The notes beneath the pieces are model-generated. The model made no database searches. It was given only the letters and a program-made list of their open reading frames with translations, and had not been told where the DNA came from. The translations under genes and the position numbers were made by a program. From assembly GCF_053078305.1 (NCBI RefSeq), contig NZ_CP166879.1: 64,000 nt of DNA; one strand, 5' to 3'. This document shows positions 26,098 through 26,933 of this stretch, piece after piece. The number at the start of each line of letters is the position of its first letter. Within the stretch, counting starts at the first letter, position 1.

Positions 26098-26466
26098 GTG
26101 TCAGACACACTCTCCGGGACAACGCATCCTGACGACAATCACGACCGCCCCTGGTGGGGACTCCCCTGCACAGTGACGCCCTGTTTCGGGGCACGTCTGG
26201 TGCAGGAGGGTAACCGGTTGCATTACCTTGCAGACCGCGCCGACATCAGAGGCCGGTTCAGCGATGCGGATGCATACCATCTGGACCAGGCCTTTCCGCT
26301 GCTGATGAAACAACTGGAACTCATGCTCACCAGCGGTGAACTGAATCCCCGCCATCAGCATACCGTCACGCTGTATGCAAAAGGGCTGACCTGCGATGCC
26401 GATACCCTGGGCAGTTGTGGTTACGTGTATATCGCCATTTATCCGACACCCGGAACGAAAACATAA
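26098..26466 (+). CDS. cbeA: CbeA/YeeU-family antitoxin
   Basis: GTG start ([48 protein letters not shown]...), 122 aa. Confidence 0.85.
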
Positions 26467-26555
26467 ACCACCAGAATAAACCTCTGCTACTGCCCGGTGC
26501 ACCACAGCACCATTCTCCTCAAAATTTAATCGCTCATATCAGGAAAATCTTCATT

Positions 26556-26933
26556 ATGAAAACATTACCCGACACACACGTACGGGCGGCATCGCGCTGC
26601 CCGTCTCCGGTTGAAATCTGGCAGACACTGCTCACCCGACTGCTGGACCAGCACTACGGCCTCACGCTGAATGACACACCGTTCGCCAATGAACGTGTGA
26701 TTGAGCAGCATATTGAGGCAGGCATTTCACTGTGTGATGCGGTGAACTTTCTCGTGGAAAAATACGCGCTGGTACGAACTGACCAGCCAGGATTCAGCGC
26801 CTGTACCCGCTCTCAGTTAATAAACAGCATCGATATCCTCCGGGCTCGCCGGGCAACAGGCCTGATGACCCGCGACAATTACAGAATGGTAAATAACATT
26901 ACCCAGGGTAAGCATCCGGAGGCGCAACAATGA
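26556..26933 (+). CDS. cbtA: CbtA/YeeV-family toxin (cytoskeleton-inhibiting type IV TA toxin)
   Basis: [56 protein letters not shown]..., 125 aa. Confidence 0.85.

Follow-up and report, generated by a model that had tools for sequence, protein, structure and literature searches.

A CbeA/CbtA (YeeU/YeeV-type) toxin-antitoxin pair in a tRNA-Phe-linked genomic island beside cadC of Escherichia coli

Organization of the cbeA-cbtA Locus

The window, which is the whole 64-kb stretch of DNA that was analyzed, carries one copy of a YeeU-type antitoxin gene followed by a YeeV-type toxin gene, as seen by tblastn with both proteins. Direct reading of positions 25400..27700 places the antitoxin gene cbeA at 26098..26466 on the plus strand (369 nt, 122 aa), with a GTG start codon at 26098-26100 and an in-frame TAA stop codon at 26464-26466. 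The toxin gene cbtA is located at 26556..26933 on the same strand (378 nt, 125 aa), starts with ATG at 26556-26558 and ends with TGA at 26931-26933. The two genes are separated by a spacer of 89 nt (26467..26555, plus strand), while on the other side the cbtA stop codon and the ATG of the following DUF5983 gene share the tetranucleotide ATGA (26930-26933), so that these two frames overlap by 4 nt. An earlier note on this DNA had placed a CbeA/CbtA pair at 26098-26933, with a GTG start for cbeA, a gap of 89 bp to cbtA and an overlap of cbtA with yeeW. The coordinates proved exact to the base, and the GTG start and the length of the gap were both recovered in the direct reading. The 4-nt overlap also exists, but the overlapping gene is a full-length yeeW-like gene encoding a DUF5983 protein of 162 aa, whereas yeeW of K-12 is a stub of 64 aa.

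Upstream of cbeA a GAGGA Shine-Dalgarno sequence (26087..26091, plus strand) lies 7 nt before the GTG. Alignments with K-12 and the strains 2A and 95-3322 revealed that the GTG start codon and the ribosome-binding site are kept in all three, and that GAGGA sits inside a stretch of approximately 28 nt that is conserved in K-12, while the rest of the upstream region is not conserved. The spacer is also diverged with respect to K-12, except for the last ~25 nt, which include an AGGA ribosome-binding site (26541-26544). The boundaries assigned by PGAP in E. coli strain 2A are identical, including the 89-nt gap and the 4-nt overlap. A mechanical list of open reading frames extends both genes up to the first possible start codon and so gives longer frames (25978..26466 and 26415..26933); the homologues and the ribosome-binding sites favor the shorter starts. 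An RNA element in the cbeA-cbtA spacer is not proposed, since the fold of the 89 nt is not significantly more stable than that of shuffled sequences (z = -1.78) and no Rfam family matched the spacer. An antisense open reading frame of 134 aa (26101..26505, minus strand) spans all of cbeA; it is most likely spurious, a consequence of coding-strand composition.

Family Membership and Relation to Characterized Pairs

CbeA matches PF06154 (CbeA_antitoxin) with an E-value of 7.2e-55 (184.2 bits, cut-off 27) over profile positions 1-100 of 101, and CbtA matches PF06755 (CbtA_toxin) with 7.9e-63 (209.9 bits, curated cut-off 25) over all 112 positions of the profile (1-112), so that a chance match is excluded by E-values of 7e-55 and 8e-63. 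Alignment with K-12 YeeU and YeeV, a check that the earlier note had put forward, gives 91% identity for CbeA and 89% for CbtA together with the same GTG, a CbtA-type spacer and the 4-nt overlap, and bears out the claimed YeeU/YeeV-type identity. The paralogous K-12 proteins are more distant, with 63-65% identity between CbeA and YafW/YfjZ, and 61% and 64% between CbtA and YkfI and YpjF, respectively. Among solved structures, CbeA is best matched by YeeU of Shigella flexneri (PDB 2INW, 5e-78) and of E. coli (2H28, 6e-76), over residues 1-120/121. A PDB sequence search with CbtA gave no match, and the PDB contains no structure of a CbtA-family toxin, so that within the family the antitoxin alone has been solved. 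NCBIfam returned no match for any of six module proteins; NCBI assigns their names by other rules, and the result does not speak against membership. PADLOC matched none of eight module proteins, so that no catalogued anti-phage system is implicated, and PHROGs returned unnamed families only for the module proteins.

The arrangement is that of the CbeA family, with the antitoxin gene directly upstream of the toxin gene on the same (plus) strand. CbtA of the window has Phe65, the residue required by CbtA, YkfI and YpjF for interaction with FtsZ, and carries Cys15 in place of Arg15, the MreB determinant of K-12 CbtA. The lack of Arg15 does not exclude membership in the CbtA family, since this residue is specific for K-12 CbtA rather than family-defining, and Cys15 is compatible with membership because YpjF binds MreB despite having Cys15. 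The pair displays every feature of the CbtA/CbeA family that can be tested computationally.

Compared with CbeA/CbtA of the K-12 element CP4-44, the window pair has the same GTG start codon in cbeA, a similar distance of ~88-89 nt between the two genes, the same 4-nt overlap of cbtA with yeeW, the same RadC-like and DUF987 genes on the upstream side, Phe65, a long N-terminus of CbeA and a long C-terminal tail of CbtA type. The two differ in location, CP4-44 being near yeeA, in the sequence of the spacer, in the length of yeeW, in a 214-aa gene that separates cbeA from the DUF987 gene in the window and has been deleted from K-12, and in toxin residues 6-15, where the K-12 sequence VLPGQAASSR is replaced, including the change of Arg15 to Cys. 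YafW/YkfI (CP4-6) and YfjZ/YpjF (CP4-57) belong to the same two Pfam families and likewise have the antitoxin-then-toxin order, Cys15 and Phe65 in the toxin, and antirestriction, RadC and DUF987 neighbors near the attachment site. In contrast to the window pair, these paralogues are only 61-65% identical, have a spacer of 20 nt and are not followed by a DUF5983 gene; moreover, the antitoxins YafW and YfjZ are shorter at the N-terminus and the toxins YkfI and YpjF are shorter at the C-terminus. The spacer length has been described as setting the cbeA-cbtA pair apart from the paralogues with their 20-nt spacers (Wen 2017, PMC5371832). CbtA/CbeA of Erwinia amylovora is a validated toxin-antitoxin pair of the same families, but its toxin, which is ~63% identical to E. 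coli CbtA, causes elongation only (PMC6521040). The E. amylovora homologues keep Arg15 and Phe65, yet no binding to FtsZ or MreB was observed in yeast two-hybrid assays (PMC6521040); retention of these residues is therefore no guarantee of shared targets, and family membership alone would not fix the targets of a CbtA protein.

Location in a tRNA-Phe-Linked Island

The pair is a paralogous copy residing in a pheU (tRNA-Phe)-linked island beside cadC, and not the CP4-44 locus. A 3′ remnant of tRNA-Phe (pheU) is present at 29480..29502 on the plus strand, where 21 of 23 bases match and none such is expected by chance, followed by a terminator-like hairpin with a T run (~29514..29540) upstream of cadC, which starts at 30119. 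The remnant has the appearance of the island's distal attachment site, which would place the pair ~2.5 kb inside the distal end, consistent with the description of such modules as lying “near the prophage attachment sites” (Wen 2017, PMC5371832). A complete tRNA gene was not found within the 64-kb window, and the island therefore extends past its left edge.

The co-directional genes of the island encode, in order, a GTPase, an Ag43 autotransporter, a YeeR-like protein, IrmA, DUF905, DUF932, an antirestriction protein, a RadC-like JAB protein, DUF987, the 214-aa protein, CbeA, CbtA, DUF5983, a 65-aa DUF957-type protein, DUF4942 and a ParD/ParE pair. The same module order is found in the cadC-adjacent islands of strains 2A and 95-3322. 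With its position near an attachment-site end and behind DUF932, antirestriction, RadC and DUF987 genes, the pair is situated as in the tRNA-linked, P4-like islands of the CP4-44, CP4-6 and CP4-57 type. The right half of the window represents E. coli core chromosome, with 99.5% identity to many strains, and runs from cadCBA via dcuSR, dcuB and fumB to adiA, melB, eptA and proP.

Several further features of the window were observed. Just inside the end of the island, a type II ParD (28650..28913, plus strand, PF03693, 4e-17) and ParE (28910..29236, plus strand, PF05016, 8e-18), overlapping by 4 nt, constitute a second toxin-antitoxin pair. The DUF4942 protein (27712..28578, plus strand) has 288 aa, compared to 189 aa annotated at the same position in 95-3322, and is weakly related to a DNA methyltransferase family (phrog_6263, 6e-21). 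In the left part of the island, an enterochelin-esterase-like gene of the IroD/IroE type (3113..4387, plus strand) and a gene for an IroB-like glycosyltransferase (4529..5653, minus strand) indicate a salmochelin (iro) cluster. An Rfam match to the IS102 RNA (16294..16530, plus strand, 74.6 bits) overlaps the start of the Ag43-type autotransporter frame (16474..19671, 1065 aa), a position comparable to that of isrC, an sRNA of K-12 that directly precedes flu. The core chromosome part contains a full-length match to the enterobacterial sRNA STnc630 at 59843..60008 (minus strand, 181.8 bits).

Neighboring Genes and Probable Transcription Unit

Directly upstream of cbeA, behind the DUF987 (yeeT-like) gene, lies a gene for a protein of 214 aa (25404..26048, plus strand) that matches phrog_5162 (3e-34), but for which no Pfam, NCBIfam, PDB or PADLOC match was found. 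It is present in 2952 of the 5426 complete E. coli genomes, under PGAP names that vary from “antitoxin of toxin-antitoxin stability system” and “DUF8835” to hypothetical protein. In CP4-44 of K-12, approximately the first 24 nt of this gene are retained and fused to the cbeA leader, which corresponds to a deletion of ~640 bp. Downstream, the DUF5983 gene (26930..27418, plus strand) encodes a two-domain protein of 162 aa (PF25638, 7e-31, and PF19419, 5e-22), of which the 64-aa K-12 YeeW matches the N-terminal domain only, at 75% identity. Because of the shared ATGA, translation of DUF5983 is probably coupled to that of cbtA, and two papers describe DUF5983 as a constant downstream neighbor of CbtA in E. 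coli lineages (PMC10790755; bioRxiv 10.64898/2026.06.09.728211). An AlphaFold2 model of the DUF5983 protein is unusable (mean pLDDT 35.4), its input consisting of 29 sequences at least 87% identical to the query; in the homologue search, the best 120 matches were near-identical sequences only, and a literature search on YeeW returned only unrelated papers.

The co-directional run ends with the 65-aa gene (27430..27627, plus strand; DUF957 in PGAP), which has no Pfam match and is 97% identical to the DUF957 gene of strain 2A. It is followed by a hairpin resembling an intrinsic terminator (27655..27681, plus strand), with 11 pairs, seven of them G-C, and a T run, which is the probable end of the transcription unit. 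A crude consensus scan of 24900..27800 found no sigma-70-like site on the plus strand. Because only ~28 nt upstream of cbeA are conserved, no plus-strand sigma-70-like site was found and a hairpin follows the run, cbeA and cbtA might tentatively be regarded as part of a longer polycistronic message. Such a message would comprise the genes for DUF932, the antirestriction protein, RadC, DUF987, the 214-aa protein, CbeA, CbtA, DUF5983 and DUF957, and would end at the hairpin.

Sequence Divergence and Selection

Neither cbeA nor cbtA contains a frameshift, an internal or premature stop codon or a truncation. Inactivating mutations in either gene, which the earlier note had named as evidence against the assignment, were checked for and are absent, and most of the changes relative to K-12 are synonymous. 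Nei-Gojobori counts against the K-12 genes give pS 0.169 and pN 0.050 for cbeA (pN/pS 0.30), and pS 0.198 and pN 0.068 for the whole cbtA gene (pN/pS 0.34), showing that the pair is under purifying selection. Within cbtA, codons 17-124 have pS 0.166 and pN 0.029 (pN/pS 0.17), whereas codons 1-16 (26556..26603, plus strand), with pS 0.405 and pN 0.336 (pN/pS 0.83), show the strongest divergence from K-12 within the gene. The N-terminus of the toxin, including Cys15, therefore has the appearance of a hypervariable or mosaic patch. Compared with strain 2A, cbeA is identical apart from one synonymous site, and cbtA is identical through the first ~15 codons but diverges thereafter (whole-gene pS 0.19), a pattern of identity followed by divergence that points to a recombination breakpoint within cbtA, near codon 15.

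Toxin Residues 15 and 65

In the window CbtA, Phe65 is present and position 15 is occupied by Cys (…RAASRCPSP…), where K-12 CbtA has Arg; the neighboring residue is Arg14. Phe65 was found in 86 of the 86 close homologues that cover this position. Among 87 close cluster representatives, 49 have Cys and 26 have Arg at position 15, by which count the Cys15 allele is a common natural form, commoner than Arg15 among close relatives. Phe65 is needed for interaction with FtsZ in CbtA, YkfI and YpjF (Heller 2017, PMC5624674). In K-12 CbtA, the mutation F65S abolished the interaction with FtsZ and R15C that with MreB, while the double mutant was non-toxic (PMC5624674). YpjF and YkfI also have Cys15, and YpjF binds MreB; mutation of Cys15 to Arg made no difference in either protein (PMC5624674). 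The effect of residue 15 is therefore context-dependent. Given the effect of R15C in K-12 CbtA, the interaction of the window CbtA with MreB may be weaker or reliant on other determinants.

Mechanism and Alternative Interpretations

Taken together, we are highly confident that the locus is an intact two-gene CbeA/CbtA (YeeU/YeeV) type IV module located toward the distal attachment site of a tRNA-Phe-linked island by cadC. The mechanism of the window alleles is inferred by transfer from the K-12 proteins. K-12 CbtA binds the H6/H7 loop of FtsZ and, separately, the flat double-filament face of MreB (PMC5624674). By analogy, CbtA of the window, a small cytoplasmic toxin, would bind the H6/H7 loop of FtsZ in a manner that needs Phe65 and, independently of FtsZ, the flat face of MreB, such that binding to both would block division and elongation. 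CbeA would neutralize CbtA without binding it, by binding to polymers of FtsZ and MreB and favoring the formation of bundles. According to Masuda 2012 (as cited in PMC5624674, PMC5086665 and PMC5371832), K-12 CbeA does not bind CbtA but binds FtsZ and MreB and raises their bundling, and it likewise protects cells against FtsZ inhibitors that are unrelated to the toxin. This model of target protection with no direct contact is based mainly on in-vitro bundling data of one laboratory.

That the pair is instead degenerating and no longer functional, left over from a cryptic element, as one could suspect from the mosaic nature of the island, from pseudogenized relatives elsewhere, such as integrase fragments in related loci, and from the many partial CbtA entries in databases, is extremely improbable, given full-length open reading frames with complete Pfam coverage, conserved start codons and ribosome-binding sites, a pN/pS of ~0.3 and identical proteins on more than 500 contigs. 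For an active pair, the antitoxin could alternatively lower the amount of toxin, at the level of mRNA or protein, rather than protect FtsZ and MreB, in the sense of a type V-like mechanism or of expression-level control. In older work of Brown and Shaw from 2003, the antitoxins reportedly gave a large drop in cellular toxin protein. A YoeB/RelE-like fold of YeeU, as given in a review (PMC5086665), points in the same direction, the window CbeA matching the solved YeeU structures with E-values down to 5e-78. We nevertheless consider such control improbable: it would not account for the binding and bundling of FtsZ and MreB by CbeA, nor for the rescue from unrelated FtsZ inhibitors, both from Masuda 2012 (as cited in PMC5624674, PMC5086665 and PMC5371832); neither toxin nor antitoxin autoregulates the operon in the K-12 pairs (Wen 2017, PMC5371832), and nuclease activity is without any report. 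On this published evidence, neutralization by protection of the FtsZ and MreB polymers is the reading that we prefer; the sequence analysis itself fits both models.

The targets of the toxin and the extent of the module leave room for two further interpretations. Because the K-12 MreB determinant is absent, the Cys15 class of CbtA alleles could consist of toxins directed against FtsZ only, which would lead to filamentation rather than to lemon-shaped cells. This is in line with K-12 CbtA R15C, which specifically loses the two-hybrid signal with MreB and gives filaments (PMC5624674), with Cys15 in the window protein itself and with the pronounced divergence of the first 16 codons (pN/pS 0.83, against 0.17 elsewhere). 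It has to be set against YpjF, which binds MreB with Cys15, and against the neutrality of C15R in YpjF and YkfI (PMC5624674); in addition, Cys15 is the majority form (49 Cys versus 26 Arg in 87 cluster representatives), and Arg14 keeps a basic residue one position away, so that we regard a loss of MreB as a target as somewhat doubtful, if worth entertaining. The functional unit could, on the other hand, exceed two genes, with DUF5983 and possibly the 214-aa gene modulating or triggering the toxin, and K-12 having a degenerate version. The ATGA overlap and the consistent position of DUF5983 behind CbtA across E. coli lineages (PMC10790755; bioRxiv 10.64898/2026.06.09.728211) would fit, as would the 64-aa yeeW stub of K-12 and its ~640-bp deletion of a gene found in 2952 of 5426 genomes, and the signal that activates type IV toxins is not known (Wen 2017, PMC5371832). 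However, the K-12 CbeA/CbtA pair functions as a toxin-antitoxin system in the absence of both neighbors, DUF5983 genes are missing from the YkfI and YpjF loci, shared gene order in mosaic islands says little about joint function, and no domain, PADLOC or structural clue was obtained, which leaves a larger unit with little probability. The combined proposal, namely that K-12 CbeA/CbtA is a degenerate form of a module that in the window, as in many wild E. coli, has a full-length DUF5983 gene, that one or both of the DUF5983 and 214-aa neighbors control activation and that the Cys15 class may differ in how or whether it acts on MreB, is likewise a speculative one that we would not expect to hold. 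The intact two-gene module, which would act on FtsZ and, possibly with altered strength, on MreB, remains the favored interpretation.

Prevalence and Significance

Homologues of the 1-kb stretch comprising the pair were found in 4932 of 5426 complete E. coli genomes (~91%), with a median of three copies, and are annotated there as “type IV toxin-antitoxin system YeeU family antitoxin” and “TA system toxin CbtA family protein,” in agreement with the statement of the earlier note that this is a known system. The exact proteins of the window occur on public contigs that are all from E. coli (CbeA on 706, CbtA on 527, DUF5983 on 524 and the 214-aa protein on 526). The pair is already known, already annotated and deposited in the form of the exact proteins, and represents ordinary biology. 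As it belongs to the most often annotated toxin-antitoxin modules of E. coli, the outcome is a clean confirmation with little wider import. For the transfer of K-12 results some caution is warranted, since the allele differs at the sole residue known to govern binding of K-12 CbtA to MreB. Beyond this, the locus presents the pair in its natural neighborhood, including two conserved genes of which one has been lost (the 214-aa gene) and the other truncated (yeeW) in K-12.
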